64,000 nucleotides of DNA from Erysipelotrichaceae bacterium (GTDB taxonomy: Bacteria > Bacillota_I > Bacilli_A > Erysipelotrichales > Erysipelotrichaceae): positions 875 through 64,874 of the forward strand of contig JAZQIF010000117.1 in NCBI GenBank assembly GCA_045540935.1, read 5' to 3'. Under the pieces are notes generated by a model, which made no database searches, was not told where the DNA came from, and worked only from the letters and a program-made list of their open reading frames with translations. The position numbers and the translations under genes are program-made. Shown piece by piece: positions 32,522 to 50,319 of the stretch (its first letter is position 1; the number at the start of each line of letters is the position of its first letter).

Positions 32522-33364
32522 ATGTCAAAGACCGGTTTAGTCTTAGAGGGCGGCGGGCTTCGCGGCGTATTCACCGGCGGAGTCATCGACTGTTTTCTGG
32601 ATAAAAATATAAAATTCGATTATGTGGTCGGTGTTTCGGCAGGTTCCTGCAACCTGTTTGCGTATGTGGGAAAACGCAGAGGCTATGCCCGTGCCTGCAT
32701 GATACAGAAAGACCGTTCCAATTCGTTCTGGGGCGTTCCGCAGATGATCGAGTCCCACAAGTTCGTCGATCTCGATAAGATCTTTTATGAGTACACGGAA
32801 CAGTATGGTTTCGATTTCGATACCTTTATCAATAACCCGCAGGATTGGGAGATGGTAGTCTCCAATATCCTGACCGGTCAGGCGGAGTACATGCATACCG
32901 ATGACATCGAGACATCCAGGCTCATCGGCAAGGCATCCTGCTCGATGCCGGGTCTTACCGAACCGGTAGCGATCGGTGACCAGTTATATATGGATGGCGG
33001 GATCTGTGATTCGATCCCGGTACAGAGAGCTTTGGATCAGGGCTGCGACAAGCTGGTCGTGATCCTGACCCGCAAGAAGGGCAACTATTCCCACATCAAT
33101 GAGGCCACTCTGGCGCTGTTCCGAAGGATCTATGGAAAGTATCCGAACTTCCTGAAGGCTTTGGAGAACCGTACAAAACTCTATCGCGATCAGGTCGGAC
33201 TTGCCGAGGAACTCGAACGGCAGGGCAAAGCTATCATCATCCGTCCTTCCATGAAGGAAGTCAGCAGACTCGAGTCCAATGAAGACGAACTGCTGATGTC
33301 CTATTACCACGGCTATACCAAGGCCAAAGAATACATCGATCGTATCTCTCAGCTGAAAGAATGA
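32522..33364 (+). CDS. patatin-like phospholipase
   Basis: Oxyanion GGGLRG, nucleophile elbow GVSAGS, and the catalytic Asp in MDGGICD. The start is chosen at MSKTGLVLEGGG. Confidence 0.85.
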   Translation: MSKTGLVLEGGGLRGVFTGGVIDCFLDKNIKFDYVVGVSAGSCNLFAYVGKRRGYARACMIQKDRSNSFWGVPQMIESHKFVDLDKIFYEYTEQYGFDFDTFINNPQDWEMVVSNILTGQAEYMHTDDIETSRLIGKASCSMPGLTEPVAIGDQLYMDGGICDSIPVQRALDQGCDKLVVILTRKKGNYSHINEATLALFRRIYGKYPNFLKALENRTKLYRDQVGLAEELERQGKAIIIRPSMKEVSRLESNEDELLMSYYHGYTKAKEYIDRISQLKE

Positions 33365-35915: not shown

Positions 35916-37109
35916 ATGAAAATTGGTGTTTATTATGCCGTTCCAGCTACGGCAGCTGCCGAGATCGCCAATGGCGGTAATTTCCCTTGGCTGAAGAAGC
36001 TGAGCGAGGAAACGGGTTTTGAATTTGAAGTGACCGATGTCGATCACATCAATGACTATGATATGGTCGTCGATTTCATCGGCGGCGGCGGTACGGAAGG
36101 CATCTTCAAGAGAGATATGGACAAGCTTCCGCAGCCTTACTTCCTTTTAACGACCGGAGCCAACAACTCCCTGGCAGCTTCCATGGAGATCCTTTCCTAC
36201 CTGCGTCAGAACGACCTTCCGGGTGAGATCATCCACGGCAGCGATGACTTCGTCGTATCCAGGATCAAAGAACTCGCGCAGGTCTTCAAGGCTAAGAAGA
36301 GACTTGACGGTTTCAAGGTCGCCAGAGTCGGCGAACCTTCCGACTGGCTGATCTCCTCCAGTGTCGATGCGAAGGAGTCCAAAGAATACAACAACATCGA
36401 GATCATCGATGTCACGATGGAAGAGTTCTTTGAAGAGATCGCAAAGAAAGAATATGTTGAAAACGAATATACGAAGCTCATCAAGTCCAAGGGCTATGAC
36501 GAACATGAGATCGAAGAAGCTTTATACATCTACGGTGCTTTAAGAAGGATCGTCGATAAGTATGAACTCAACGGCATCACTGTCAGATGTTTCGATCTTC
36601 TTGATACCGTTCATTCCACAGGCTGTGCCGCTCTGGCCATCCTGAATGCGGCGGGTATCTACGCATCCTGCGAAGGCGATGTCCCGGCGCTGTTATCGAT
36701 GGCTGTCATCGGTGAACTTTCCGAAAAGCCGGTCTTCATGGCCAATCCTTCCAGGATCGATACCGACAACAACGAGATCATCTTTGCCCATTGCACACTT
36801 CCGATCAACATGCCTTCCAGCTTCGAGATCATGACCCACTTTGAGTCACAGATCGGTGTCGCGTTCCGCGGCAAGCTGAAAGAAGGTCCGGTCACGGTCT
36901 TCAAGTGTGACGGTCTGCTGAATGAATTCTTCGTATCCAAGGCAGAACTTCTGGAGAACTTGAGCTTATTCAACCTCTGCCGTACGCAGATCCGTCTCAA
37001 GATGGATCATCCGGTCTCTTACTTCCTGACCGAATCGATCGGCAACCACCATCTGATCGTGGAAGGCGATTACGCCAAACTGGTCGAAGAATTTTTCAAG
37101 TGGTTATAA
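35916..37109 (+). CDS. uncharacterised FucI/AraA-like sugar isomerase superfamily protein
   Basis: The central block VRCFDLLDTVHSTGCAALAILNAAGIYASCEGDVPALLSM...FAHC resembles the catalytic domain of the L-fucose/L-arabinose isomerase-like family (COG2407-type). The assignment is tentative. Confidence 0.4.
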   Translation: MKIGVYYAVPATAAAEIANGGNFPWLKKLSEETGFEFEVTDVDHINDYDMVVDFIGGGGTEGIFKRDMDKLPQPYFLLTTGANNSLAASMEILSYLRQNDLPGEIIHGSDDFVVSRIKELAQVFKAKKRLDGFKVARVGEPSDWLISSSVDAKESKEYNNIEIIDVTMEEFFEEIAKKEYVENEYTKLIKSKGYDEHEIEEALYIYGALRRIVDKYELNGITVRCFDLLDTVHSTGCAALAILNAAGIYASCEGDVPALLSMAVIGELSEKPVFMANPSRIDTDNNEIIFAHCTLPINMPSSFEIMTHFESQIGVAFRGKLKEGPVTVFKCDGLLNEFFVSKAELLENLSLFNLCRTQIRLKMDHPVSYFLTESIGNHHLIVEGDYAKLVEEFFKWL

Positions 37110-37130: not shown

Positions 37131-37568
37131 ATGTCGAATGAAGAACTGATCGCACTGGCCTTCGAAGCCAGAGAGAAAGCATACGCCCCGTATTCCAACT
37201 GGAAAGTCGGAGCAGCCCTGCTGTGCAAAGACGGTACGGTCTACAAAGGATGCAATATCGAAAACAGCGGTTTCACTTCGACCATCTGCGCCGAACGGAC
37301 AGCCTTTTTCAAGGCGATCTCCGAGGGCGTATATGACTTTGAAAAGATCGCGATCGTCGGCGGCGATGCCGACAGGGGCTCAGAGGGTTACTGCACGCCT
37401 TGCGGTGTCTGCCGGCAGGTGATGTCCGAGTTCTGCAAGCCGGATGAGTTCAGGATCATCTGTGCCAAGTCGGAAAACGAATACCACGAATTCACGCTCA
37501 GACAGATGCTACCGGAATGTAACTTCATCGCGGAAGCGGATGACGGTTACGGATTCAAAGCCAACTGA
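37131..37568 (+). CDS. cdd: cytidine deaminase
   Basis: Zinc motifs CAERTAF and CTPCGVCRQ. 145 aa. No terminator separates it from the upstream FucI-like gene. Confidence 0.88.
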   Translation: MSNEELIALAFEAREKAYAPYSNWKVGAALLCKDGTVYKGCNIENSGFTSTICAERTAFFKAISEGVYDFEKIAIVGGDADRGSEGYCTPCGVCRQVMSEFCKPDEFRIICAKSENEYHEFTLRQMLPECNFIAEADDGYGFKAN

Positions 37569-37616: not shown

Positions 37617-38600
37617 TTACGCTTCTTTTAACTGTTCCAGAAGGATCTGATGGACTTTGGCAGAGTCCATATGGTAGATGACTTCGACTTTGGAATCGTT
37701 ATTGAACATCCCCCTGCGGTCTATTACCATCTGGCCGTCCGCCATACCGCCTGAGATATCGATATTGACGATGTCTCTTCTTTTTTCCGTGATGACCGAA
37801 GGGTCGATCAAAGGAGCGACCGCCGCATAGTCGTAGATGCAGCAGTCCTCAAGTCCGCCATGGAATAACAGGTCGCATCTTCGTATATAGCCGTCGAGCT
37901 CTTCGGCGATAAAGCTTGCCGCCGGTGTATTGAGGTCAGCGATATCCTGAATGTCCTTTCGGGTATAGGTGGCACCTTCCTCGCAGGCTTCGATCGGACA
38001 GACGATGCAATGTGCACCGCTGGATAAGACGATCTGGGCAGCTTCCGGATCATCGTAGAAGTTGGCTTCGGCAAGCGGTGTGCGGTTTCCGATATACAAG
38101 CCGCCGCCCATGATGTAGATGGTACCGATGTTTTCGACGATCTTCGGCTCAAGACGCAAGGCCATGCCAAGATTTGTCAATGGACCGACAGCACAGATGT
38201 CGATCTTTTCTTCACTGTTTTTCAGTGTTTCGATCAGATAGGAACAGGCGTGTTTTTCTTCAACTTTGCGCTCAGGAAGCGGCAGTGGGAATTCCTTCTC
38301 GTGGATCAGCACTTCCTTGCCGTCGACTTCCATGCGGATGCGTTCCATCAGCGTGTTGTAGTCTCTTCCTTTGATGAGATCTCTGACCATCGGACTTTCA
38401 CACCCCTTATAGACCGGGATGTCCTTGCCACAAAGGTGGGAAACTTTCAGGGCATTATTGACGACGTCATCCGCCGGGATATTTCCTTTGACACAGGTGA
38501 TGGCGATCACTTCCAGGTCTTTTTCTTTCAATAAGGCGATCAGCGCCACCGCGTCATCGCAGCCGATATCACAGTCAAATATGATCTTATTATGTTTCAT
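37617..38600 (-). CDS. nucleoside hydrolase (IUNH family)
   Basis: N-terminal DCDIGCDDAVAL (DxDxxxDD calcium/ribose motif). 327 aa. Confidence 0.85.
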   Translation of the reverse strand: MKHNKIIFDCDIGCDDAVALIALLKEKDLEVIAITCVKGNIPADDVVNNALKVSHLCGKDIPVYKGCESPMVRDLIKGRDYNTLMERIRMEVDGKEVLIHEKEFPLPLPERKVEEKHACSYLIETLKNSEEKIDICAVGPLTNLGMALRLEPKIVENIGTIYIMGGGLYIGNRTPLAEANFYDDPEAAQIVLSSGAHCIVCPIEACEEGATYTRKDIQDIADLNTPAASFIAEELDGYIRRCDLLFHGGLEDCCIYDYAAVAPLIDPSVITEKRRDIVNIDISGGMADGQMVIDRRGMFNNDSKVEVIYHMDSAKVHQILLEQLKEA

Positions 38601-38632
38601 CGTATTTACCTCGCTTTCAGTATAGCAGATTA

Positions 38633-38662
38633 TTGACTATGGCAATTTGAGCGTGATAAATT
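38633..38662 (+). promoter_or_regulatory. promoter of the hydrolase/deaminase/phosphorylase operon
   Basis: -35 TTGACT (38633-38638), 18-nt spacer, extended -10 TGaTAAATT (38654-38662). Confidence 0.5.
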
Positions 38663-38729
38663 GAAATTGTAAAGTTGCTTCTGTAGAAGTATAAGAGTGA
38701 ATGCAAATTCATATCAACGAAGTTAGTTG

Positions 38730-38756
38730 GCCGGCTTTCAAAGCTGGCTTATTTTG
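38730..38756 (+). terminator. terminator-like hairpin inside the 5' leader (candidate attenuator)
   Basis: GCCGGC-tttcaaa-GCTGGC followed by TTATTTTG. It ends 26 nt before the 38782 start codon. Confidence 0.4.
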
Positions 38757-38781
38757 TCTATAGGGTGCATAAGGAGCTTAT

Positions 38782-39534
38782 ATGAAAGACAATTTCAAAG
38801 TGAGCCTTTGCTGCCCGATCCCGAGGGTCGGTTTCGGGATAGGAGAAAGGCATTGCGAAGATGCGATCTTCCAGATGGAAGGCTATCTTTCTTCATGCAA
38901 AGGAGACATCATCGTCTTCCCCGAAGGCTATATCCCTTCCGATAAGACAGAAGAAGTGGTGCGGCTGGCTCATAAATACGATAAGTGGATCATCACGGGC
39001 TGCGAGGATGATCCTCCCCGCAAAAACTTATATACGCTTCTCATTTCGCCGGAGAACGGCTTGCTTTATTGCCATCAGAAGACAGCACTGACCGATGGTG
39101 ACCGTAAAAACGGAGCGATCGCCGGAGACAAGATCCATGCGATCGATTCGCCATTCGGAAAGATCGGCATCGTCTTGTGTTATGAGATCCATTTTCCGGA
39201 AGTGGCCAGGATCGAATGCATCGAAGGTGCCCGCATCCTGTTCAATACGATCGGTACCGGCATGTGGCATGAGCAGCAGTTTTCTGAATGGACTGCGATC
39301 GCCAGGGCCAGAGCGATCGAAAACCGCTGCTTCGTCGTGGGATGTACCCATTTCTGTGATCCGATCCCGCTGGTCTTTGCCTATGATCCGCATGGCCGGA
39401 CATTATTGTTGAAAAGAAATGAAGAAGGCCTGTTCGATGTGGATATCGATATGGCTCTGATCGATGAGAGAGATTATTTCAAGGACAGAAATCCGAAAGC
39501 ATACACCAAGATCTGTGAGGAGGAGATATTATGA
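38782..39534 (+). CDS. carbon-nitrogen hydrolase (nitrilase superfamily)
   Basis: The Glu-Lys-Cys triad is visible: VFPEGY, YCHQKTAL, IVLCYEIHFPE. 250 aa. RBS AAGGAG. Confidence 0.8.
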   Translation: MKDNFKVSLCCPIPRVGFGIGERHCEDAIFQMEGYLSSCKGDIIVFPEGYIPSDKTEEVVRLAHKYDKWIITGCEDDPPRKNLYTLLISPENGLLYCHQKTALTDGDRKNGAIAGDKIHAIDSPFGKIGIVLCYEIHFPEVARIECIEGARILFNTIGTGMWHEQQFSEWTAIARARAIENRCFVVGCTHFCDPIPLVFAYDPHGRTLLLKRNEEGLFDVDIDMALIDERDYFKDRNPKAYTKICEEEIL

Positions 39535-40868
39535 GCGATTTTCTGATCAGAAATGCCGATGTGGCGAATTTTGACGATCTGACGACGTCACGAAAGGGCA
39601 TCCTTATCAAAGATGGAAGGTTTGAAAAGATCGCCGATGCCATCGATCCGGCTTTATACCCGGATGCGCAAGTCATCGATGCGAAGGGGATGCTGGCGAT
39701 GCCGGGCTTTACCGATTGCCATTCCCATGTCTATCAGACTTTCATCAAGGGACCGCTGGATGACCTGGTGATCACCGAATGGCTGGTAAGACTCTTCACA
39801 TTCGAAGAGTATATGACCGATGAAGATTACTATTATGCGACACTTCTCTCCTGTCTCTCGGCGATGCGTTTTGGTACGACGACGATCAACGAGATGGGCG
39901 GCTATGAACATATGGATGCGACGCTTCAGGCTTTTGAAGATGCCGGCATCCGGGTGACGTTTGGCATCTCGACGACCGACATCCCGGAAAACGAAGTGAC
40001 ACCGATCATTTCCGTCGAAGAAGCGATCGCCAGAAGTGAGGAAGTCTATCGTAAGTGCCATGGCCGCAATCACGGCCTGATGAAAGCTTCGGTCGCCCCG
40101 GCAGGCCTGCCGGCAGTGTCAGGTGAGATGGCTAAGGCTTTGAAGGCCTGGGCAAATGAAAGAGGACTCATCTATCACACCCACCTTGGTGAAGGAAAGA
40201 TGGAGACCGAAAGAGTCGCGAAGGAATACGGGCTTGGCGGCGAGGCGGAAGCCTTGGAATCGCTGGGCATATTGGATGAGAAGACCCTGCTGGCGCATTC
40301 GATCTGGCTCTCCGACCACGAGATCGACATCATCGCCAAAAGCGGTGCCATTCCGGTCCATTGTCCGAATACCAACATGAAGATCTCTGACGGCATCCCG
40401 AAGATCGCGCAGATGCTTGAAAAGGGCATCCCGGTCGCGATGGGCTGTGATGGCGAAGCTTCAAGCGGTACCAAGGATATGGTCAGAGAAGGAAAGGCCG
40501 GTTCCTATCTGCAGAAGGCAGTGACTTTGGATCCGACCGTGATGGATGCCGGTACGACTTTCAAAATGATGACGGTCAATGGCGCAAAGGCTCTCGGTTA
40601 TGATGACCTGGGTCTGATCAAAGAGGGTTATCAGGCAGACCTGATCTTAGTCAACATGGAAGATGATCTTTCTTTGACGGACCGCGACCACAGGATCGGC
40701 AATCTTCTCTATGCCGGTACCGGACACGCCGTCGATACGGTCTTTGTGGCCGGACAGCTCAAAGTGAGGAATAAAAAACTCGTCGATTTCGATGAAGAGT
40801 TCATATTGCGTAAATGCAACGACCTGATCCATGACCTCAATGTCAGGACAGGCTATGTAAAGGAGTAA
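39531..40868 (+). CDS. amidohydrolase of the ATZ/TRZ (MtaD/SsnA/guanine-cytosine deaminase-like) group
   Basis: MPGFTDCHSHVYQ (HxH), YHTHLGE, LLAHSIW, HCPNTNMKISDG, MGCDGEASS. ATGA overlap with the upstream gene. Confidence 0.8.
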   Translation: MSDFLIRNADVANFDDLTTSRKGILIKDGRFEKIADAIDPALYPDAQVIDAKGMLAMPGFTDCHSHVYQTFIKGPLDDLVITEWLVRLFTFEEYMTDEDYYYATLLSCLSAMRFGTTTINEMGGYEHMDATLQAFEDAGIRVTFGISTTDIPENEVTPIISVEEAIARSEEVYRKCHGRNHGLMKASVAPAGLPAVSGEMAKALKAWANERGLIYHTHLGEGKMETERVAKEYGLGGEAEALESLGILDEKTLLAHSIWLSDHEIDIIAKSGAIPVHCPNTNMKISDGIPKIAQMLEKGIPVAMGCDGEASSGTKDMVREGKAGSYLQKAVTLDPTVMDAGTTFKMMTVNGAKALGYDDLGLIKEGYQADLILVNMEDDLSLTDRDHRIGNLLYAGTGHAVDTVFVAGQLKVRNKKLVDFDEEFILRKCNDLIHDLNVRTGYVKE

Positions 40869-40870
40869 GG

Positions 40871-41704
40871 ATGAAAGTACGGGAAAAGAAATATCTGGAT
40901 TCCAAGGGAAGATTGTATTTCACCGGATTAAAGGAAGGTGATATCGCAAAGACTGTCCTGATGCCCGGTGATCTGGCAAGATCGAAGGTCATTGCCGACT
41001 GTTTCAAAGAAGCCCATTTCGTCAACGGACAAAGGACCTATTACACCTATAGCGGCGTGACTGAGAAGGATGTGCCGATCTCGGTCATCTCTTCCGGCAT
41101 GGGACCTCTGGCGGTCTCGACGGTCGCCGAGGAGTGTTCACAGATCGGCATGAAGTATCTGATCCGTGTGGGTACCGGTGCTGCCTTATTGACGGATTAT
41201 CGGCCGGGACGCATCATCATTGCGACAGGCTGCGTCAGAGGGGACGGAAACTCCTACGAGTATGTACCTGCCGAGTATCCGGCGATCGCCGATCCGTATG
41301 TGACGATGGCCCTCATCAAGGCGTGCAAGGAATTCGGCGAAGATCCGATCATCGGCCTATACCGGGCTCATGATTCCTATTACCGCGAGACTTCTACGGC
41401 AATGATCGATACCTATGAAAGGATGAAACCGTGGGTCGATGCCGGCGTAAAGATGGTGGAGAATGAATCGGCGACTCTGTTCACTGTCGGTCCGCAGCTG
41501 GGACTTCGCTGCGGTTCGATCTGCGTATCGCACACTTCGATGGTCGAAGATACCATCTACTATACCGGTCCGAAGTCGGAAGAAGCTTATCCGGAAGCGT
41601 TCGAGGATGATTTCATGGACAAGCGGATCAAGGTCTGCTCAAAGATCGCCGTACGGGCAGCCGAGATCATCGATGAGATGGAAAAGAAAGGAGTCATACG
41701 CTGA
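40871..41704 (+). CDS. PNP/UDP (NP-I) family nucleoside phosphorylase, paralogue 1
   Basis: Aligns by eye to E. coli Udp blocks: PGDLAR, SSGMGPLAVSTVAEE, IRVGTGAA, GCVRGDGNS, EYPAIAD, VENESATLFTV. Confidence 0.75.
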   Translation: MKVREKKYLDSKGRLYFTGLKEGDIAKTVLMPGDLARSKVIADCFKEAHFVNGQRTYYTYSGVTEKDVPISVISSGMGPLAVSTVAEECSQIGMKYLIRVGTGAALLTDYRPGRIIIATGCVRGDGNSYEYVPAEYPAIADPYVTMALIKACKEFGEDPIIGLYRAHDSYYRETSTAMIDTYERMKPWVDAGVKMVENESATLFTVGPQLGLRCGSICVSHTSMVEDTIYYTGPKSEEAYPEAFEDDFMDKRIKVCSKIAVRAAEIIDEMEKKGVIR

Positions 41705-42507
41705 TGACAGAAAAGATCAAAAACGGTTTTGACTCGATCCCCCAGCTGGAAAAAGACGGGACCGTCCATCATTTAGGCATTGACCATTCGCAGATCGGGG
41801 AAGGGGTCATCCTGACTTCCAATCTGGAGCGTGTGGAGCTCATCAAAAATCGTTTCGATGAGGCGAAACGGGAAGCGTTCCACAGAGAATACATCACCTA
41901 TACCGGGACTTTTGATGGCGTAAGGATGTCGGCCATGTCGATCGGCAACGGCTGCATGCCGACCGAGATCGCTGTGGAAGAACTGCGTCATGTCGGATGC
42001 AAGCGCATGATCAAAGTTGGCTCCTGCTACGCCATCGATCCGGATATCAAACCGGGCACGATCTTCGTCCCGACCGGGGCTTGCCGCTGTGAGGGGGCGA
42101 CACTCGAATATGTCAATATCCAATACCCGGCAGTCAGTGACCTGCAGACTTTCTTTGCCTTGTTACAAAGTGCGAAAGAAAAAGGTGCCGAGGTAAAGAC
42201 CGGCATCATCCGTACCCATGACGGATTGTTTCTGGAATCACCGTTTGCCCATGAGGGAGTCAGGGAAAGGATCGTCCCGTGGCAGAAAGTCGGTGTTTCT
42301 TGCGTGGACAACGAGTGTGCGACGATGTTTACGGTCGCCTCGATCTTGCAGATGCAGGCCGGCTGCATCTATGTGGTGACCGACAACCTTGAAACAGGCG
42401 AAGCGATGGATTATGAAAAGGATTATGAAAACAAGATCATCGAGATCATCGATATCGCTATTTCTGCCATGGCGAAGCTGATCAGGGGAGAGGAATATGA
42501 AATATAA
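41704..42507 (+). CDS. PNP/UDP (NP-I) family nucleoside phosphorylase, paralogue 2 (divergent)
   Basis: SIGNGCMPTEIAVEE, IKVGSCYA (Lys where paralogues 1 and 3 have Arg), GACRCEGAT, QYPAVSD, VDNECATMFTV. TGATG overlap with paralogue 1. Confidence 0.7.
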   Translation: MTEKIKNGFDSIPQLEKDGTVHHLGIDHSQIGEGVILTSNLERVELIKNRFDEAKREAFHREYITYTGTFDGVRMSAMSIGNGCMPTEIAVEELRHVGCKRMIKVGSCYAIDPDIKPGTIFVPTGACRCEGATLEYVNIQYPAVSDLQTFFALLQSAKEKGAEVKTGIIRTHDGLFLESPFAHEGVRERIVPWQKVGVSCVDNECATMFTVASILQMQAGCIYVVTDNLETGEAMDYEKDYENKIIEIIDIAISAMAKLIRGEEYEI

Positions 42508-43306
42508 GTCGGCAAAGCTCGTCAATGAGAAAGGAAAGATGTGGCACATCGGCTTAGATGAGAATGATTGCGGAAAGCATTTCATTTTACCTGCCGATCC
42601 GGCAAGATGCGAGATGGTGGCAAAGCATTTCGATACTGCCGAACTCAAAGCCATAGCCAGAGGAAATCCCACCTATACCGGGACCTATCACGATGTTCCG
42701 GTCTCGGTCATGTGTACCGGCATGGGTTCCATGGCGGTCTCGGTCGCCGTGGAGGAACTCAAACACTTAGGCGTGAAGACGATGATCCGCATGGGGACCT
42801 GCGGTTCTTTGCAGGCAAATCTGCCGGAGAACTGTTTCGTGATCGCGACCGGAGCGATACGCGGGGAAGGAGCTTCGAAAGAATACATCCCTTTGGAATA
42901 TCCGGCAGTTGCCGATGTCGATGTAGTCTGCGCCTTGCGCAAGGCTTGCGAAGAATATGGCGTGAAGCCATATCTTGGCATCGTGCGGAGTCATGACTCT
43001 TTCTATATCGAATCGCCAGGCGCTCATGAAGGATATCTAGAAAGGATACAGCCGTGGACCGATGCGGGTGCTCTGGCGGTAGAAAACGAGTCTTCGGCCT
43101 TATTTACGGTCGCTTCTTTGCTGGGCGGCATCCGGGCAGGAACGATCCTTCTTTGCGGAGGTTACCTCGGAAGCAGCTATGGAAGCATGTCGACTTCCAA
43201 TAAGGACGGCTATGCGCAGAAAGTGGACTTGATGTCAAAGATCACCTTACGGGCGATCGAGATCATTGATGGATTGGATGATCTTAAAGACATACGGGAA
43301 GTTTAG
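42497..43306 (+). CDS. PNP/UDP (NP-I) family nucleoside phosphorylase, paralogue 3
   Basis: PADPAR, CTGMGSMAVSVAVEE, IRMGTCGS, GAIRGEGAS, EYPAVAD, VENESSALFTV. 11-nt overlap with paralogue 2. Confidence 0.75.
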   Translation: MKYKSAKLVNEKGKMWHIGLDENDCGKHFILPADPARCEMVAKHFDTAELKAIARGNPTYTGTYHDVPVSVMCTGMGSMAVSVAVEELKHLGVKTMIRMGTCGSLQANLPENCFVIATGAIRGEGASKEYIPLEYPAVADVDVVCALRKACEEYGVKPYLGIVRSHDSFYIESPGAHEGYLERIQPWTDAGALAVENESSALFTVASLLGGIRAGTILLCGGYLGSSYGSMSTSNKDGYAQKVDLMSKITLRAIEIIDGLDDLKDIREV

Positions 43307-43948
43307 ATGAAACATATCGATCTGAAAGCTTTCCTTGTACGTTTTGCGATCAGCTTCTTTGCCTCGGCGATCTCCAGTTTCGGTATCGGCTGCTACTATA
43401 ACTGCGGTTTCGGGACCGATCCGATCTCGATCTTCGTCGACGGACTGCATGGTCATTTTGGTCTGTCCTATGGAACGATCTCGACCATCTGCAACGTCAT
43501 ACAGACGATCTTCATCTTCATTTTCATAAGGAAGTATCTGGGTCCCGGTACGCTTCTGGGCGTATTGACCGGCGGTCCTTTGATCGATCTCTCGGAGATC
43601 ATGATGCGAAACCTTTTCCAGGCAGATCAGACGGCATTGACTGTCAGGATACTCATCCTGATCGTCGCTCTGATCACGACAGGGATCGGTTATGGCATGG
43701 GCATCGGGGCAGAAATGGGTGTCGGCTGTTTTCAGTTTTTGCCTTTGTTTCTGAGCGAGAAGACACCGCTTGAGCTCAAGTATACGCAAGTCATCACGGA
43801 CGCTTTATTTTTCTTCACCGGTCTTCTTTTGGGCGGGGTGGTCGGCATCGGATCGATCGTTTCGGTCCTTGCGACAGGTTATTTTCTCGACATCGGTCTG
43901 AAGCTGACGGAGCATCTGAACAAGGATGTCGGACCGTGGTATTTATGA
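43307..43948 (+). CDS. YczE/YitT-like small polytopic membrane protein (putative transporter)
   Basis: 213 aa, about 6 TM helices, with an N-terminal FGIGCYYNCGFGTDPISIF motif. The start abuts the stop of paralogue 3. Confidence 0.45.
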   Translation: MKHIDLKAFLVRFAISFFASAISSFGIGCYYNCGFGTDPISIFVDGLHGHFGLSYGTISTICNVIQTIFIFIFIRKYLGPGTLLGVLTGGPLIDLSEIMMRNLFQADQTALTVRILILIVALITTGIGYGMGIGAEMGVGCFQFLPLFLSEKTPLELKYTQVITDALFFFTGLLLGGVVGIGSIVSVLATGYFLDIGLKLTEHLNKDVGPWYL

Positions 43949-43987
43949 ACATTTTGTGCATAATTTCGGATACCCGTCTCTGAATTG

Positions 43988-43996
43988 TGTTATACT
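43988..43996 (+). promoter_or_regulatory. extended -10 element TGtTATACT
   Basis: It precedes the structured RNA region. No clear -35 element at canonical spacing. Confidence 0.4.
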
Positions 43997-44022
43997 GAAT
44001 CTGAACTTGAAAACACAGTAAG

Positions 44023-44119
44023 AACTCCCCATGATCTGACTGCTTTATTTTGGTATAAGCCGACTGCGCATATCTGGTCGGATTATATAGAAGGAGCAGG
44101 TGCGAGCTTATGGGGAGTT
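44023..44119 (+). ncRNA. candidate structured RNA (leader or sRNA): 97-nt rod-like hairpin
   Basis: P1 is AACTCCCCAT (44023-44032) paired with ATGGGGAGTT (44110-44119). P2 is CTGCT (44040-44044) paired with AGCAG (44095-44099). The apical hairpin is GTATAA.CCGAC (44053-44064) paired with GTCGG.TTATAT (44077-44088). The element lies between a promoter-like element and a strong terminator. Confidence 0.35.
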
Positions 44120-44155
44120 TGTCTTGTATCTGCTTCTTTGTATGAGACATATTTC

Positions 44156-44184
44156 ACAGGTACTGCTGAAGGTACCTGTTTTTA
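44156..44184 (+). terminator. intrinsic terminator closing the structured RNA
   Basis: ACAGGTAC-tgctgaag-GTACCTGT followed by TTTTTAT. Confidence 0.75.
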
Positions 44185-44227
44185 TATTTCAGAGGCTTAT
44201 TTGAAAACGTCTAAGACAAAAAGCTAC

Positions 44228-44257
44228 TTGTAACCGTCAAATAAGAGATGTTAAAAT
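44228..44257 (+). promoter_or_regulatory. second promoter directly upstream of the BMP ABC operon
   Basis: -35 TTGTAA (44228-44233), 18-nt spacer, extended -10 TGtTAAAAT (44249-44257). Confidence 0.45.
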
Positions 44258-44358
44258 TTATTTAGATATGTGTATATGGAAGACAGAATATATCCGATAA
44301 GATAGAAGGCGTTTTTTATGTATGCAGATCTGTTTTTTCAAGAAAGAAGGAGAAAAAA

Positions 44359-45543
44359 ATGAAGAAATTTCTTACGTTAGCTCTCGCTTTGCTTCTTACG
44401 ATGTGCTTATTCGGCTGCGCTAAGAAGGAAGGCGGCAATGAAGGCGAAGCAACTCCTGCAGCAAGCGATGAACATTACGATGTCGTATTCCTTGCTGACC
44501 TGGGTTCCATCTATGATGGCGGCTTCAACGAGCACTCATTCTATGGTATCAAGGACTATTGTGAAGAGAACGGCCTGAAGTACACGTACTTACAGCCTGC
44601 AGGTTCCGATGATGCTTCCAGAACGACGATCTTCGAACAGGCAGTCAACCAGATGTCTGCAGATGTCTTAGTCGCTGTCGGCTTCTTATGGGATGCTGCA
44701 CTCTGCCAGGAGATCCCGAATTATCCGGATGTCAAAGTCATCTTCGTCGATGCCGATGACCTCTACAACATCGACTACAACTATGACGGTGTCGATGATT
44801 CCCTGCCTCATCAGGACAACCTGGCGATGATCACATTCGCTGAGCAGGACTGCGGTTACATGGCCGGTTACGCTGTCGTCAAAGACGGTTACAGAAACCT
44901 GGCATTCATGGGTGGTATGGCTGTTCCGGCTGTCGTCAGATTCGGTTACGGCTTCATCGAAGGTGCGGAAGATGCTGCTGAAGAACTCGGTTTGGCTGAA
45001 GGCTCCATCGATATGAAATACTTCTATACCGGTACATTCGATGCTTCTCCGGATATCGTTACCAGAGCTTCCGAATGGTACACCAACGGTACAGAGATCA
45101 TCTTCTCCTGCGGCGGTACGATCGTCAACTCCGTTATCCAGGCTGCTAAGGATGGCGAAAACAGAAAGATCGTCGGTGTCGATACCGATGAATACTTCAC
45201 AAGAGCTGCTGACGGTGCTGAAAACGAACCATTATTCGTCACTTCCGCTATGAAGGATCTGGAAGTCACGATCTACAGAGCTGTCAAGGCTGCTTACGCC
45301 GGCGGTTCCGAATGGTCCAACTACACGAGCCAGGGCCTGATCCGTTTAGGTGCTAAGGAAGACGGTGCTATCCTTGCTCCGTACAGAGCTGAAAACTGGA
45401 ACACATTCACAGAAGAAGATTACAATGCTGTCAAGCAGCAGGTCATCGCTGTTCATGATACATTACCGACCGAAGTCGATGGTGTCAACGGTGCTCCTGT
45501 CGACGGCTACAAGTACGTCAACGTTACTTACTTCGAACAGTAA
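44359..45543 (+). CDS. BMP-family (PnrA/TmpC-like) nucleoside-binding ABC lipoprotein
   Basis: Lipobox LFGC after MKKFLTLALALLLTMC. The blocks FLADLGSIYDGGFNE...VGF...GVDTDEY are typical of the basic membrane protein family. Confidence 0.85.
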   Translation: MKKFLTLALALLLTMCLFGCAKKEGGNEGEATPAASDEHYDVVFLADLGSIYDGGFNEHSFYGIKDYCEENGLKYTYLQPAGSDDASRTTIFEQAVNQMSADVLVAVGFLWDAALCQEIPNYPDVKVIFVDADDLYNIDYNYDGVDDSLPHQDNLAMITFAEQDCGYMAGYAVVKDGYRNLAFMGGMAVPAVVRFGYGFIEGAEDAAEELGLAEGSIDMKYFYTGTFDASPDIVTRASEWYTNGTEIIFSCGGTIVNSVIQAAKDGENRKIVGVDTDEYFTRAADGAENEPLFVTSAMKDLEVTIYRAVKAAYAGGSEWSNYTSQGLIRLGAKEDGAILAPYRAENWNTFTEEDYNAVKQQVIAVHDTLPTEVDGVNGAPVDGYKYVNVTYFEQ

Positions 45544-45566
45544 TATCATTTATCACTGAATTGTCT

Positions 45567-45591
45567 AGGGAGGTGCGTTATACACCTCCCT
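45567..45591 (+). terminator. intercistronic hairpin (partial terminator/mRNA stabiliser) after the SBP gene
   Basis: Perfect 9-bp stem AGGGAGGTG-cgttata-CACCTCCCT followed by an interrupted T-tract, TACGTTTATTT. Confidence 0.5.
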
Positions 45592-45620
45592 TACGTTTAT
45601 TTGACGAAAGGATAAGTATT

Positions 45621-47159
45621 ATGGAAACTGCGGAAAACATTATTGAATTCCGTCACATAACCAAAAGGTTCCCGGGCATCATCGCCTGCAACGATATCAG
45701 CCTGGACATCCGCAAAGGAGAGATCCATGCCCTGCTTGGTGAAAACGGCGCGGGTAAATCCACTTTGATGAGTGTTCTTTTTGGTATGTATACGCCTGAA
45801 GAAGGCAGTATCGCGATCAGGGGGAAAGAAGTCAAGATCACCAATCCGCGTGTCGCAACTGAGCTGGGTATCGGTATGGTGCACCAGCACTTCAAACTCG
45901 TGCAGAACTATTCCGTTCTTCAGAATATCGTATTAGGTTCTGAAACTTTAAAGGGACCGTTCCTCGATATGGACAGCTGCCGTAAGAAAGTCGTCGAACT
46001 TTCACAGAAATACGGTCTGGCAGTCGATCCGGATGCCCTTATCGAAAACATTACAGTCGGTCAGCAGCAGCGCTGTGAGATCCTGAAGATGCTTTACAGA
46101 GATGCCGAGATCCTGATCTTCGATGAACCGACTGCCGTATTAACTCCGCAAGAGATCGATGAACTCATGGAGATCATGAAAGGCCTGGCAAAAGAAGGCC
46201 ACACGATCCTGTTCATCTCACATAAACTCGAAGAGATCAAACGGGTCTCCGACAGAGTCACCGTCTTAAGAAGAGGCAAGCTGATCGAAACGCTCAACGC
46301 CGCCGATACGACGACGACACAGATGGGCGAACTGATGGTCGGCAGGGAAGTTTCCTTCCATGTCGATAAGAAGCCGGCTGAACCGAAAGAAGAAGTATTG
46401 AAAGTCGAACATCTCACGATGATCAACGACGAGACCAAGAAAAAGGTCGTCAATGATGTCTCCTTCTCTGTCAGGAAGGGCGAGATCCTGGCGATCGCCG
46501 GAATCGACGGAAACGGGCAGAGCGAACTGATCTACGGACTCACCGGCATCATGCCGATCGAGGAAGGAAAGATCACGATCAACAAAGAAGACTACACCAA
46601 GAAGTCGATCCGCGAGAGGAATCTCGTGATGTCACATGTTCCGGAAGACCGTCATAAATACGGTCTGATCCTGGATTATCCGCTGTCCTACAACCTGGCT
46701 TTGAAGAACTACTTCAAACCGGAATTCGTTTCCAAGACAGGTTTCCTGAATTTCCACAAATTCGATACCTATGCCGATGAACTGATCGACCGCTTCGATA
46801 TCCGTTCCGGACAGGGTAAGATCACGATGGCCAGATCGATGTCCGGCGGCAACCAGCAGAAAGCGATCGTTGCCAGAGAGATCGACCAGAATGCTGATGT
46901 CTTAGTGGCGGTCCAGCCGACCAGAGGTCTTGATGTCGGCGCCATCGAATTCATTCACAAACAGCTGGTCGAACAAAGAGACAAAGGCAAGGCCGTCTTA
47001 CTGATGTCGTTTGAACTTGATGAGGTCATGGATGTTGCAGACCGTGTGATCGTCATGTTCGAAGGCGAGATCATGGGTGATCTCGATCCGAAGAAAGTAT
47101 CGGTCGAGGAGATGGGCTTATACATGGCCGGTGTCAAGAGAGAGGAGAAAAGCGCATGA
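45621..47159 (+). CDS. ABC importer ATP-binding protein with duplicated NBDs (sugar/nucleoside CUT2 type)
   Basis: First NBD: GENGAGKST, Walker B ILIFDEPTAVL. Second NBD: GIDGNGQSE, LSGGNQQK-like signature SMSGGNQQK. The start is chosen at METAENI, after AAAGGA. Confidence 0.9.
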   Translation: METAENIIEFRHITKRFPGIIACNDISLDIRKGEIHALLGENGAGKSTLMSVLFGMYTPEEGSIAIRGKEVKITNPRVATELGIGMVHQHFKLVQNYSVLQNIVLGSETLKGPFLDMDSCRKKVVELSQKYGLAVDPDALIENITVGQQQRCEILKMLYRDAEILIFDEPTAVLTPQEIDELMEIMKGLAKEGHTILFISHKLEEIKRVSDRVTVLRRGKLIETLNAADTTTTQMGELMVGREVSFHVDKKPAEPKEEVLKVEHLTMINDETKKKVVNDVSFSVRKGEILAIAGIDGNGQSELIYGLTGIMPIEEGKITINKEDYTKKSIRERNLVMSHVPEDRHKYGLILDYPLSYNLALKNYFKPEFVSKTGFLNFHKFDTYADELIDRFDIRSGQGKITMARSMSGGNQQKAIVAREIDQNADVLVAVQPTRGLDVGAIEFIHKQLVEQRDKGKAVLLMSFELDEVMDVADRVIVMFEGEIMGDLDPKKVSVEEMGLYMAGVKREEKSA

Positions 47160-48280
47160 CAGTGAAAGCTAAAAGGAAATTCGATATCACGCGTTATACA
47201 TCTCTTCTGTCATCCCTGGTCGCCGTTGTCGGCGGTCTGATCATCGCATTCGTCGTTCTGATGCTGACAAATCCTTCCAAGGGTCTTTCGGCGTTCACGA
47301 CACTGATCACCGGCGGTTTCCAGCTGGGCGGTCTGAAAAACTTAGGAACTTTATTCTACTTTGCGACACCGATCCTTTGTACCGGTGTTGCGATGTGTGT
47401 CGCTTTCCAGGCCGGTATCTTCAATATCGGCGGACCTGGCCAGTATTCGGTCGGTGCTCTGGCAGCGATCTTAACATCCTTGTATTTCTCAAAGGATCTT
47501 CCGGCACCTCTGACCTGGATCGTTCCTTTGATCGTCGCAACCATTGCCGGTGCTTTATGGGCTCTCATCCCGGGCATCTTAAAGGCATACTTCAACGTCA
47601 ACGTCGTCATCGGTACCATCATGTTCAACTACATCGAGATGTACTACATGATGCACTGGATCAATGACTACTGCTATGATGCGATGAAAGGTCAGACAAA
47701 GGCCATCCCGGCACAATGCAAACTGCCGCAGGCCTTCATGCCTGCGATCACCGCAAACAAGACGGCCGATATCGGCATCATCATCGCAATATTGGTCGCG
47801 GTCTGTGCCTGGGTCCTGCTGGAAAAAACGAAACTGGGTTATGAACTGAAAGCCTGCGGTAAGAATGCCGAAGCTTCCAGATATGCGGGTATCAAGTCCA
47901 AGAGGAACATCATGATCTCGATCTTACTGTCCGGTGCGCTTTGCGGACTGGGCGGCGGTCTGACGCACTTATCGGCTTCCGGTACGTATATCACGATGAA
48001 GGAACAGCTGGCTGCCGAAGGCTTCAACGGTATCGCGGTCTGCTGTCTTGCGAATAACTCACCGTTAGGTGCCATTTTAGGTGCCTTGTTCCTGGCGTTC
48101 TTAACAGTCGGCGGCAACTATATGCAGATCTTCGGTTTCCAGAGAGAGATCGTTTCCGTCATCACGTCCGTCATCATCTATTTCGCGGCATTCTCTTTGT
48201 TCTTGAAGCAGATGCTGGAAAAGATGCTGATCCGCCAGACCAAGGAAATAAACAAAGTCACAGGAGAGGAGCTCAAATAG
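47156..48280 (+). CDS. ABC importer permease (BMP/CUT2 system)
   Basis: 374 aa, about 9-10 TM helices. ATGA overlap with the ATPase gene. Confidence 0.85.
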   Translation: MTVKAKRKFDITRYTSLLSSLVAVVGGLIIAFVVLMLTNPSKGLSAFTTLITGGFQLGGLKNLGTLFYFATPILCTGVAMCVAFQAGIFNIGGPGQYSVGALAAILTSLYFSKDLPAPLTWIVPLIVATIAGALWALIPGILKAYFNVNVVIGTIMFNYIEMYYMMHWINDYCYDAMKGQTKAIPAQCKLPQAFMPAITANKTADIGIIIAILVAVCAWVLLEKTKLGYELKACGKNAEASRYAGIKSKRNIMISILLSGALCGLGGGLTHLSASGTYITMKEQLAAEGFNGIAVCCLANNSPLGAILGALFLAFLTVGGNYMQIFGFQREIVSVITSVIIYFAAFSLFLKQMLEKMLIRQTKEINKVTGEELK

Positions 48281-48281
48281 T

Positions 48282-49238
48282 ATGGAAATGTTGTATTTTA
48301 TCGCACGCTATTTCATGTATTTCTTCATTCCGCTCCTGGTCGTTTCCATCAGCGGCATGTTCTCTGAACGAAGCGGTGTCATCCATATGGGTCTGGATTC
48401 CGTCATGGTATGGTCCTGTATGTGGGGCGTGCTTTGTCTGCAATGGCTCGATGGGGTCGTAGCCGGCCAGCTGCGTCTGATCATCGCTCTGTTATTTGCC
48501 GGGGTCATGGGCGTCTTGCTGACACTGCTATTGGCAGTGGCGGCAGTCAACTTAAATGCCGATCAGACGATCGTCGGTATGGCCATGAATACCTTTGCGC
48601 CGGCCTTCTGTATCTTCTTTGCCAGAGTCTTACAGAACGGTTCGGAGCACCTGTCCATCCGCAATGACTTCCTGATCGAACGTATCCCGGTACTTGCCGA
48701 TATCCCGATCATCGGTCCGATGTTCTTCACGAGAACGTATATCACCAACTTTATCGGAATCGTGATCTTCATTATTTCGGCGATCATCCTCAACAAGACG
48801 AGATTCGGTCTTCGTATGTGTGCATGCGGTGAGAATCCGCAGGCTGCCGAATCTTTGGGTGTCAACGTACAGAAGTACAGATATGCCGCTTTGATCATTG
48901 CCGGTTTCATCGGCGGTATGGGCGGTCTGATGTACATCATTCCGGTCGCGACTCACTATTCGCAGACTGTCGGCGGTTACGGTTATCTGGCGATGTCCGT
49001 TCTGATCTTTGGTCAGTGGCGTTCCATTCCGCTTCTGGGAGCGGCAGCGTTCTTCGCTTTCTGCAAGACGATCGCCAATGCCTATTCCGGTATCCCGCTT
49101 CTTGCCAATCTGGGACTTCCGGCTGCCTTCTATAAGAGCCTTCCGTTCATCGTCACACTGATCGCTTTGGCCATCACGTCGAAACACGACCATGCGCCGA
49201 AAGCTTCCGGTCAGCCGTACGATAAATCGATGCGCTGA
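48282..49238 (+). CDS. ABC importer permease (BMP/CUT2 system)
   Basis: 318 aa polytopic protein. The start is 1 nt after the upstream stop. RBS GGAGAGGAG. Confidence 0.85.
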   Translation: MEMLYFIARYFMYFFIPLLVVSISGMFSERSGVIHMGLDSVMVWSCMWGVLCLQWLDGVVAGQLRLIIALLFAGVMGVLLTLLLAVAAVNLNADQTIVGMAMNTFAPAFCIFFARVLQNGSEHLSIRNDFLIERIPVLADIPIIGPMFFTRTYITNFIGIVIFIISAIILNKTRFGLRMCACGENPQAAESLGVNVQKYRYAALIIAGFIGGMGGLMYIIPVATHYSQTVGGYGYLAMSVLIFGQWRSIPLLGAAAFFAFCKTIANAYSGIPLLANLGLPAAFYKSLPFIVTLIALAITSKHDHAPKASGQPYDKSMR

Positions 49239-49253
49239 TCCATACGGATATCT

Positions 49254-49291
49254 CCGCAGTCTCATCGGCGATGATGGGACTGCGGTTTTTT
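49254..49291 (+). terminator. intrinsic terminator of the BMP ABC operon
   Basis: CCGCAGTC, 16-nt loop, GACTGCGG, followed by TTTTTT. Confidence 0.75.
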
Positions 49292-49548: not shown

Positions 49549-50319
49549 ATGACGAAAAAGAAGAAAAGATCCGGCATTTGGAAGATCGTACTTGCCATAC
49601 TGGCACTTTTTCTCGTGCTATGCGCAGGCAGCGTCTTTTATCTTTACAACAAGATCAATGATGTCGGCAAATACCAGGATAAGTTTTCTTATGACTATAA
49701 GACACTGATCGCTGAGAATGAAGGCCATGAGTTCAAAGACTGCATCTTCTATGACAGGGACGCGATGGTCTTTGAGTATACGGTACCGATGTATTACCTC
49801 TATGAGATCATCAACGAAGACTCGATGGCAAAGAAACTCGGTCTGCCGGAAGAACTCGAGATCGCCAAGGTGGGCATCGAGCCTCGTTTTGAAGATAAGC
49901 AGATCGATATCTATCTTTCTGTCAAATATCGCAATCTTATCAATACCTGTCTGCTGATAAAGACGGATCTCTCCGTTTCGGATGACAGAAGGCAGGCACA
50001 GCTTTCTTTCAATGACTTCTTCGTCATCGATGAAAATGTGACGGAACACCTGCGGGAAAGCGTACAGCTGGAAAAAGGAACGGTTTTATTCACACACCGT
50101 TTCCCGGTCTTCGTGCCGTATTACCGGATGCCGGATTATCGGCCGGAACATATCCACGATCTGACTTATGATGGGGAAAATATCTGTGCAAAATATGACA
50201 TTGCCGGGGCAATGAAGGACTATCTTGCGGAAACCGAATACAACGAAGATCCTTTCGATGTCTGCATGGAAAAGATCGATCTGGAAGTGCGCATGAACTC
50301 AATAGCTCACAGCAACTAA
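49549..50319 (+). CDS. hypothetical N-terminally membrane-anchored protein
   Basis: MTKKKKRSGIWKIVLAILALFLVLCAG anchor. RBS AAGAGG. I recognise no family. Confidence 0.4.
   Translation: MTKKKKRSGIWKIVLAILALFLVLCAGSVFYLYNKINDVGKYQDKFSYDYKTLIAENEGHEFKDCIFYDRDAMVFEYTVPMYYLYEIINEDSMAKKLGLPEELEIAKVGIEPRFEDKQIDIYLSVKYRNLINTCLLIKTDLSVSDDRRQAQLSFNDFFVIDENVTEHLRESVQLEKGTVLFTHRFPVFVPYYRMPDYRPEHIHDLTYDGENICAKYDIAGAMKDYLAETEYNEDPFDVCMEKIDLEVRMNSIAHSN

Follow-up and report, generated by a model that had tools for sequence, protein, structure and literature searches.

A rare, conserved two-operon locus of ruminant-gut Firmicutes with a predicted role in nucleoside uptake and breakdown

What is the function of a gene cluster that combines a nitrilase-superfamily hydrolase, a deaminase-like amidohydrolase and three phosphorylase paralogues with an importer of the nucleoside-binding BMP type? 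The question is raised by a locus at positions 37617-49238 of a 64,000-nucleotide stretch of DNA from an Erysipelotrichaceae bacterium (assembly GCA_045540935.1, contig JAZQIF010000117.1), hereafter called the window. A preliminary description of this DNA had proposed four steps, namely uptake, glycosidic-bond cleavage, deamination and C–N bond hydrolysis of a nucleoside-derived base, and had regarded the gene set as undescribed. The locus is real, conserved and rare, and no description of it was found; literature searches on the gene combination and on the DUF6198 family of its membrane protein gave nothing relevant. Genes for uptake, glycosidic-bond cleavage and deamination consistently occur as a set, and that part of the scheme stands, whereas the nitrilase step lies outside the conserved core. 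On balance, we read the locus as a two-operon module of ruminant-gut Firmicutes through which nucleosides would be taken up and stripped for pentose and nitrogen.

A map of the open reading frames (ORFs) places a six-gene operon on the plus strand, followed on the same strand by an operon for a BMP-type ATP-binding cassette (ABC) importer, and it reproduces exactly the gene coordinates and the overlapping or abutting junctions given earlier. Pfam and NCBIfam also uphold the earlier family assignments (IU_nuc_hydro, CN_hydrolase, Amidohydro_1, three PNP_UDP_1, a membrane protein and a Bmp importer). The first operon encodes the nitrilase-superfamily C–N hydrolase NIT (38782-39534), the deaminase-like ATZ/TRZ-type amidohydrolase AMH (39531-40868; Amidohydro_1), the NP-I phosphorylase paralogues PNP1 (40871-41704), PNP2 (41704-42507) and PNP3 (42497-43306), all of PNP_UDP_1, and, as its last gene, a YczE-like/DUF6198 polytopic membrane protein (43307-43948). 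NIT overlaps AMH by 4 nt, a 2-nt gap separates AMH from PNP1, PNP1 overlaps PNP2 by 1 nt, PNP2 overlaps PNP3 by 11 nt, and the YczE-like gene abuts PNP3. After a 410-nt spacer, the second operon encodes a BMP/PnrA-family substrate-binding lipoprotein (44359-45543; PF02608, 90 bits), an ABC transporter ATPase with two ATP-binding cassettes (45561-47159; Pfam and NCBIfam) and two BPD_transp_2 permeases (47156-48280 and 48282-49238; Pfam). It is closed by a strong intrinsic terminator at 49254-49285, with a 14-bp stem containing eight G–C pairs followed by a T-run. An IUNH-family nucleoside hydrolase is encoded divergently on the minus strand (37617-38600). Public records give the catalytic proteins of the locus generic names only.

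Conservation was assessed by a scan with PNP1 as the query over one genome per species (185,579 species genomes), and the cassette proteins were mapped onto the resulting species loci, designated here by L numbers, using tblastn. The cassette is rare yet conserved, with 28 loci in the scan. The carriers are nearly all ruminant-gut metagenome-assembled genomes (MAGs) of Erysipelotrichaceae and Oscillospiraceae; one, Ruminococcaceae bacterium Marseille-P2935, is cultured. PNP1 orthologues are 75-96% identical. AMH, the three NP-I paralogues, the DUF6198 membrane protein and the BMP-type ABC importer travel together across the 28 loci and form the core of the cassette, with IUNH as a usual companion. 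The conservation that had been suggested as a check on the preliminary description is thus found for the core in two families. The same cassette surrounds the nitrilase gene in an Erysipelotrichaceae MAG (nitrilase 58% identical), in an Oscillospiraceae MAG (50%), where a GntR gene is inserted between PNP2 and PNP3, and in a third contig (44%). In many related loci, a cytidine deaminase gene (cdd) lies next to the cassette, often with deoC and a gene for a near-canonical uridine phosphorylase, PNPx. The cdd gene of the window (37131-37568, plus strand; TIGR01354, 135.2 bits versus a cutoff of 113.65) is likewise a canonical neighbor outside the core. Reading PNPx as a DeoD-like enzyme was dropped when NCBIfam placed it as a near-canonical uridine phosphorylase.

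The nitrilase, the first candidate for an unusual chemical step, belongs to PF00795 (83.4 bits versus a gathering score of 23.2). Its catalytic residues Glu48, Lys100, Cys133 and Glu135 do not vary among 29 homologues, so the Glu-Lys-Cys triad reported earlier is intact and is joined by a second Glu. An AlphaFold2 model (predicted local distance difference test score of 94.8) has the superfamily fold, with Foldseek template-modeling scores of about 0.8 to many superfamily members. These structural matches include amidases, N-carbamoylputrescine amidohydrolase and Nit2 at 15-21% identity and are evenly spread over several branches of the superfamily; sequence matches in the PDB are no better than E = 1e-11, and NIT scores far under all NCBIfam equivalog cutoffs. 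Placement of NIT in a characterized branch by structure was dropped because no branch stood out in the Foldseek search. The NIT clade is small and sharply bounded, with about 96 clusters and an abrupt change of E-value from 1e-37 to 1e-12 at the boundary, and on the contigs inspected its members down to 44% identity lie in this cassette. Where present, NIT is the first gene after the leader RNA described below, and its 4-nt overlap with AMH suggests translational coupling.

The distribution of NIT across the species loci shows that it is not shared by all carriers. The gene is present at 11 of the 28 loci and absent from 13; the remaining four lie on contigs too short to tell. In L014, which has a PNP1 with 93% identity to that of the window, the gap between IUNH and AMH measures only 283 bp, and tblastn gives no match to NIT at E <= 1e-3. 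With 314 clusters at E <= 1e-60, the AMH clade is roughly three times as large as the NIT clade. Because NIT is absent from 13 loci and the AMH clade is the larger one, NIT is an accessory gene rather than a step common to all carriers, and the C–N hydrolysis once put forward as an integral fourth step does not hold for 13 of the 24 covered species loci. More distant NIT homologues (about 37-44% identity) lie outside the cassette, and the two inspected (42-44%) have as neighbor a gene for a GNAT acetyltransferase or for an APH kinase. Among Lachnospiraceae relatives of about 37-42% identity, the one in L005 (L005:9488-10702) is the neighbor of a GNAT acetyltransferase gene, and another, P0070, is a GNAT-nitrilase fusion. 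In L027, a cassette without nitrilase, a type-B carboxylesterase gene (L027:12413-13942; PF00135, 278 bits) lies between GntR and PNP3 and may be an alternative deacylating accessory.

The phosphorylases are the most distinctive part of the core. PNP1, PNP2 and PNP3 are 31-41% identical to one another and 61-83% identical to their own orthologues, and they are ancient paralogues. Their best solved relative is the Streptococcus pyogenes uridine phosphorylase (SpUP) 3qpb (E = 1e-37 to 1e-48), to which PNP3 is closest; scores against the uridine phosphorylase model TIGR01718 are 150.7, 160.8 and 199.9 bits versus a cutoff of 280.3, and all three are far under the cutoffs of the deoD models. The ribose motif reads E-N-E or D-N-E in every cassette paralogue and orthologue and E-M-E in Udp, DeoD, SpUP and PNPx. 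Among the nearest 150 representatives, drawn from 1.84 billion proteins, 12 carry E/D-N-E, all at the top of the list, and 79 carry E-M-E or D-M-E. The uracil-binding residues of Escherichia coli Udp (EcUP), Gln166, Arg168 and Arg223, are absent from PNP1, PNP2 and PNP3. The phosphate-binding residues Arg30, Arg48, Arg91 and Thr94 are found in PNP1 and PNP3, and in PNP2, position 91 is Lys and position 94 is Ser. Each paralogue has a character of its own. PNP1 (E-N-E) has a long C-terminal insert and carries Phe or Tyr at the position of EcUP His8, a residue that we take to be donated to the site of the partner subunit, where it contacts the 5'-OH. PNP2 (D-N-E) has lost the GDP motif, and an Asp in its VVTDN segment, which is lacking in PNP1 and PNP3, aligns with DeoD Asp204, the catalytic residue that protonates the purine. 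In PNP3 (E-N-E), the remaining phosphate and ribose residues are canonical. PNP1 and PNP3 depart from SpUP after about residue 220. A uridine phosphorylase-like sequence does not imply that uridine is the substrate, because one haloarchaeal enzyme that carried a uridine phosphorylase annotation acts as a guanosine phosphorylase (PMC9700705).

The arrangement and degeneration of these genes bear on how the subunits may assemble. Every locus has PNP1 next to PNP2, and PNP3 can be separated from them by the GntR gene, the esterase gene or transporter genes. Four loci contain an extra pair, PNP1'/PNP2' (L019:6376-7856, L021:6974-8454, L022:7046-8526 and L026:19140-20647), and in both L021 and L022, six NP-I genes fall within 20 kb. 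PNP1' retains the phosphate and ribose residues of its own site and has lost His8; its Arg48 position is occupied by Gly or Ser, with a basic residue one position upstream, so that the function is not certain to be lost. In PNP2', His8 and Arg48 are kept, its own Arg30 is replaced by Lys, Met or Glu, and Thr94 is replaced by Glu or Ala; in L019 and L021, the ribose-motif Asn is lost as well. His8 and Arg48 are presumably the residues that each subunit donates to the site of its partner. Such complementary degeneration is expected of a heterodimer with one working site of two. These comparisons suggest that PNP1'/PNP2' is an obligate heteromeric NP-I enzyme with a pseudo-enzyme subunit and that PNP1 probably forms a heteromer with PNP2. 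A literature search on heteromeric NP-I or nucleoside phosphorylases gave no relevant report, and to our knowledge no earlier case for heteromeric NP-I nucleoside phosphorylases with pseudo-enzyme subunits has been made from sequence.

AMH shows a similar mixture of retained and altered features. Its best solved relative is the methylthioadenosine (MTA)/S-adenosylhomocysteine (SAH) deaminase 4f0r (E = 1.8e-52). Against NCBIfam, it scores 282.9 bits with DadD (cutoff 522), 291.2 bits with PRK06038 (cutoff 609) and 145 bits with MtaD/SAH (cutoff 779); an 'N-ethylammeline chlorohydrolase' model is among its best matches, which together with DadD lie at 283-291 bits versus cutoffs of 522-609. The HxH, HTHLGE and DGEASS motifs are present, as had been noted, and the metal-Asp motif GCDGEASS is invariant. 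Equivalents of Tm0936 His55, His57, His200, Glu203, His228 and Asp279, which comprise the metal ligands and the catalytic Glu of the HxxE motif, are kept in seven cassette orthologues, and those of Trp75 and Glu84, which we take to be ribose contacts, are kept in all aligned cassette AMH orthologues. At the position of Tm0936 His173, AMH has Ala, within an invariant VAPAGLPA loop in place of PH[SA]PY. Equivalents of Tm0936 Arg136 and Arg148 are also lacking, and small or hydrophobic residues occupy their positions.

The pairing of these two enzymes extends beyond the gut Firmicutes. A second E-N-E phosphorylase clade, which surfaced in a search with an outlying representative, includes proteins of the archaeon Infirmifilum. 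In its loci (L048:5973-10914, L049:4976-12990 and L050:3593-9122), the E-N-E phosphorylase is accompanied by an Amidohydro_1 protein some 440 aa long and by additional PNP paralogues. The amidohydrolases are 28-34% identical to the AMH of the window, and a P-[A/V]-G-[L/I/F]-P loop replaces the His173 loop. The archaeal locus L048 runs in the order IUNH, PNP, AMH, class I fructose-bisphosphate aldolase and PfkB kinase, the best match of the kinase being ribose-1-phosphate (R1P) kinase, and a true ribokinase gene lies next door; the other two loci have an energy-coupling factor transporter in place of the BMP system. Because the pair is found in this second, partly archaeal clade too, the partnership between an E-N-E phosphorylase and a His173-less deaminase is old and widespread. 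Its context points to ribose harvest from nucleosides, in the manner of archaeal nucleoside degradation (PMC9700705; PMC12628685). A study of an evolved T. kodakarensis strain describes nucleosides being consumed, ribose fueling growth and bases building up in the medium (PMC12628685).

Among the remaining proteins of the locus, the BMP protein is a divergent member of the Bmp family. Its solved relatives are all nucleoside binders, and its GGFN, RFGYG, GVDTD and SAMK motifs align with those of Lbp (7x0r) and of 4pev. In BmpA, Phe27 and Phe176 form an aromatic cradle, and Asp225 and Lys242 engage the ribose (PMC13325309). The motifs for this cradle and for the Asp and Lys are kept, as inferred by a mapping at the level of motifs rather than by superposition, and the BMP protein is predicted to carry the nucleoside-binding scaffold of its family. 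The YczE-like protein scores 69 bits with NF052291 (cutoff 205) and has a weak PF02588 match; PF19700 is assigned to the membrane protein in related loci, and the gene is kept in all complete loci. A role in nucleobase or nucleoside transport is inferred for it. IUNH matches PF01156 over its full length (E = 7.5e-78; 262.6 bits; profile positions 1-296 of 297) and contains the N-terminal Ca-binding DxDxxxDD motif as FDCDIGCDDA. Its best NCBIfam equivalogs, UriH, RihA and RihC, give 174-186 bits versus cutoffs of 382-450. Most loci contain IUNH, which is transcribed divergently in Erysipelotrichaceae and follows the permease genes in Oscillospiraceae.

Between the first promoter and the first start codon lies a conserved leader RNA, which the preliminary description had missed. 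The promoter proposed there is seen as a promoter-like site at 38633-38662 (TTGACT, an 18-nt spacer and an extended -10 TG-n-TAAATT; consensus scan), a sequence prediction whose boxes, TTGAC and TGnTAAAtT, are kept in nine related leaders. The leader itself (38669-38759, about 90 nt, plus strand) folds into hairpins P1, P2 and P3, followed by an intrinsic terminator hairpin at 38729-38749 with a U-run. Its copies comprise 20 distinct sequences, and 60 of 91 positions are invariant in a 17-sequence seed. Each locus with a leader has one copy, which invariably opens the cassette at its 5' end; the gene that comes first after it can be NIT, AMH, PNP3-like or PNP1'. Five pairs with compensatory changes, located in P1, P2 and the terminator, were matched by 9 of 500 shuffles and by none of the slid controls; the alignment used was fitted to the model, which favors structure, and the P1 and P2 changes are visible in the raw sequences too. 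Paired cells amount to 98.5%, versus 29-49% and no compensatory pairs in the slid controls. The 5' AAAGUUG can pair with the 5' arm of the terminator in all 17 seed sequences, forming a potential antiterminator. None of 4227 Rfam families matches the leader, either at the gathering score or at E <= 5. The leader is confined to one Erysipelotrichaceae group, L024/L001 being without it, and Oscillospiraceae loci have the GntR gene inside the operon instead. By its conservation and covariation, the leader is a candidate for a new riboswitch or attenuator.

A known riboswitch upstream of either operon was also considered; the Rfam scans at gathering score and at E <= 5 gave two tRNAs and chance-level matches. 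On the minus strand, a promoter-like site at 38688-38717 (TTGATA, an 18-nt spacer and TATACT) overlaps P2. That the leader is conserved as the promoter of the divergent IUNH gene is unlikely, as the spacer varies from 17 to 20 nt across loci and the -10 box reads TGTACT in several. The second operon has its own promoter-like site at 44228-44257 (plus strand; consensus scan), and its conserved boxes (cTTGTA, a spacer of about 17 nt and TGnTAnAAT) are kept in 13 related leaders. An RNA element had been assigned to the BMP importer. This assignment is not borne out: RNAalifold gives no consensus structure on the 13 related leaders, where 17 of 175 columns, representing the promoter-like box and the ribosome-binding site, are invariant. 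A terminator-like hairpin at 44156-44179 lies within a segment of about 260 nt between the operons (43949-44220) that occurs only in the window, L009 and L014; in other loci, the spacer is about 150 nt and lacks this segment.

These data allow a working scheme to be proposed. The BMP-ABC system would import nucleosides, and AMH would deaminate a 6-aminopurine-type (adenosine-like) nucleoside. The phosphorylases, with PNP1/PNP2 acting as a heteromer and PNP3 apart, would then release the base and a pentose-1-phosphate destined for central metabolism. IUNH would provide a hydrolytic side route for nucleosides that the phosphorylases leave, and the DUF6198 membrane protein would move the freed base. 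By default, the leader RNA would terminate transcription of the first operon, and a ligand or protein signal would relieve this. In the strains that have it, NIT would be an optional extra that extends or completes the chemistry. Because genes of the ordinary pyrimidine route (cdd and, in many loci, PNPx and deoC) adjoin the cassette, the cassette itself would probably complement that route and cover substrates other than pyrimidines. The substrates are most likely purine-type nucleosides, canonical or modified, and the atypical base and ribose pockets make a non-canonical substrate possible.

Several observations weigh against this scheme. None of the catalytic proteins of the locus reaches an NCBIfam equivalog cutoff; by the same cutoffs, the enzymes are not orthologues of named salvage enzymes, which agrees with the earlier view of an undescribed gene set. 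The Asn that replaces the near-universal Met in the ribose motif of all cassette phosphorylases could mean an unusual sugar or base. An adenosine-type substrate for AMH is not secure because the equivalent of His173, presumably the contact to adenine N3, is Ala. The proposed PNP1/PNP2 heteromer has sequence as its sole basis. The antiterminator pairing shows no covariation, its columns being invariant, and it is only partly kept in the divergent L019. Finally, the bacterial locus encodes no phosphopentomutase or kinase for the pentose-1-phosphate.

Four other readings were weighed against the uptake-and-stripping module. Divergent but otherwise ordinary enzymes, namely homo-oligomers of adenosine deaminase, uridine phosphorylase and purine nucleoside phosphorylase, could act on the eight canonical nucleosides, with the leader serving as a protein-binding site or DNA operator. 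All families are indeed standard in salvage, the cdd, udp and deoC context is ordinary, and the phosphate-binding Arg residues are kept in the three core paralogues (with Lys at Arg91 in PNP2); moreover, P1 of the leader is a perfect palindrome, and the minus-strand promoter-like site overlaps P2. We nevertheless consider this reading unlikely. The E-N-E motif is confined to small clades against an E-M-E background, the neighboring genes already supply a canonical uridine phosphorylase, and the complementary degeneration of PNP1' and PNP2' is hard to explain by homo-oligomers; P1, P2 and the terminator of the leader each show compensatory changes, and its variable P2 loop length changes the minus-strand spacer from 17 to 20 nt. 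The least probable of the readings is an obligatory four-step path for a modified nucleoside, consisting of uptake, glycosidic cleavage, deamination and nitrilase-type C–N hydrolysis of the base or a side chain. Of the 24 informative loci, 13 (L014 included) lack NIT, leave no space for the gene and give no tblastn trace of it, which argues against this path, as do an AMH clade about three times the size of the NIT clade, the distant NIT homologues outside the cassette and a fold search that gives no characterized branch. These points outweigh the position of NIT directly after the leader and its overlap with AMH, its intact and invariant tetrad, the sharply bounded clade whose inspected members of at least 44% identity lie in the cassette, the atypical AMH and phosphorylase features, which fit a non-standard substrate, and the L027 carboxylesterase inside the cassette, perhaps another deacylating accessory.

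Scavenging of S-adenosylmethionine by-products is a minority rival that we regard as improbable. Here, AMH would deaminate MTA or 5'-deoxyadenosine, and PNP1/PNP2 would cleave the inosine analogue to hypoxanthine and a 5-substituted ribose-1-phosphate. This deaminase-then-phosphorylase route, raised in the preliminary description, finds some support at the level of residues: small or hydrophobic residues replace the two Tm0936 Arg residues that we take to bind the SAH carboxylate, PNP1 has Phe or Tyr at the presumed 5'-OH contact His8, and PNP2 has the purine-type Asp. The best named matches of AMH are 5'-deoxyadenosine deaminase and MTA/SAH deaminase, and the order of steps is documented in Pseudomonas aeruginosa and Methanocaldococcus jannaschii (PMC6302742). 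The genome also contains a true mtnA equivalog (59419-60525; TIGR00512, 381.7 bits versus a cutoff of 279), as had been pointed out. The gene is not part of the locus, however. It lies about 10 kb beyond, behind genes for beta-galactosidase, glnA and metG, so that the shared contig is the sole link; it is directly 3' of metG (57477-59447), overlaps the metG 3' end and is followed by a 142-aa ORF without a family match. The context argues against the route in other ways as well, as the deoC-cdd-udp neighbors and the archaeal ribokinase and R1P kinase-like genes point to ordinary ribose. AMH lacks a His173 equivalent and is well under the DadD and MtaD cutoffs, and a high-capacity BMP importer with up to six phosphorylase paralogues seems excessive for trace by-products. 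A more elaborate reading joins an obligate heteromeric NP-I enzyme, with some dead donor subunits, to a His173-less ATZ/TRZ deaminase subfamily of Bacteria and Archaea and an Erysipelotrichaceae riboswitch of a new class that senses the nucleoside or its base. The substrate would then be a non-canonical nucleoside, for instance one with a modified base or sugar from rumen RNA/DNA turnover, and the optional nitrilase or esterase would trim a side group from some of these substrates. We hold this reading only tentatively, as doubtful but worth keeping in mind. Specialization in deoxynucleosides had been suggested by the neighboring deoC, by the NDT-family gene of L013 and by an archaeal 'DeoC' Pfam match; it keeps some probability and was dropped as the leading idea because the archaeal gene encodes a class I fructose-bisphosphate aldolase and its neighbors are ribokinase and R1P kinase-like genes.

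The surroundings add a few further observations. In L013, a nucleoside 2-deoxyribosyltransferase (NDT)-family gene (L013:8738-9343; PF05014, 72 bits) lies between the DUF6198 and BMP genes. In the window, three sizeable ORFs without a Pfam match (35916-37109, 33361-34335 and 49549-50319) flank the locus, the first with a weak likeness to sulfoquinovose isomerase (65.6 bits versus a cutoff of 700). The tRNA genes at 32392-32465 and 63137-63210 are the sole Rfam matches at gathering score in the window, and no methionine-salvage genes besides mtnA were seen in it.

Nucleic acid turnover is a large flux of carbon and nitrogen in the rumen and gut, and the enzymes that serve it in uncultured Firmicutes are annotated generically only. 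The locus contributes several novel features, including the pairing of an E-N-E phosphorylase with a His173-less deaminase, likely heteromeric phosphorylases and an orphan leader RNA. If the leader is a riboswitch, its ligand would name the substrate. Phosphorylases and deaminases of new specificity would be useful as biocatalysts for nucleoside analogues.

Comparison with known systems places the cassette among familiar pathways and sets it apart from each. Like purine riboswitches and PyrR sites, the leader is a structured 5' element with an intrinsic terminator upstream of a nucleoside operon; it differs in its three short hairpins, its heavily conserved junctions and the lack of an Rfam match. 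The best solved relative of PNP1-3, SpUP 3qpb, differs from them in its E-M-E motif. The P. aeruginosa methylthioinosine (MTI) phosphorylase is a trimeric PNP-type enzyme, whereas the cassette phosphorylases are of the uridine phosphorylase-like hexamer type. The P. aeruginosa route from MTA deaminase to MTI phosphorylase and the M. jannaschii route from DadD to MTI phosphorylase share with the cassette the order of steps and the amidohydrolase superfamily branch (PMC6302742); AMH differs in having no His173 equivalent and in missing the equivalog cutoffs, and the cassette has an importer and no link to methionine salvage. In the archaeal nucleoside degradation and pentose bisphosphate pathways (PMC9700705; PMC12628685), uridine phosphorylase-like NP-I enzymes similarly feed ribose-1-phosphate into carbon metabolism. 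The bacterial cassette differs in encoding no R1P kinase, ribose-1,5-bisphosphate isomerase or Rubisco, and the word 'deaminase' does not occur in PMC9700705. Further counterparts are bacterial nucleoside catabolic operons of the deo and dra-nupC-pdp type with BMP/PnrA importers. They share uptake, deamination and phosphorolytic release of pentose-1-phosphate, as well as the NP-I, Bmp and CUT2-type ABC families, and the canonical deoC-cdd-udp set adjoins many of the loci described here. The cassette, which has no deoB or deoC inside it, differs from them in using an ATZ/TRZ deaminase rather than Add or Cdd, in its unmatched leader RNA, and in combining three to five divergent E-N-E paralogues with a DUF6198 protein and an optional nitrilase.

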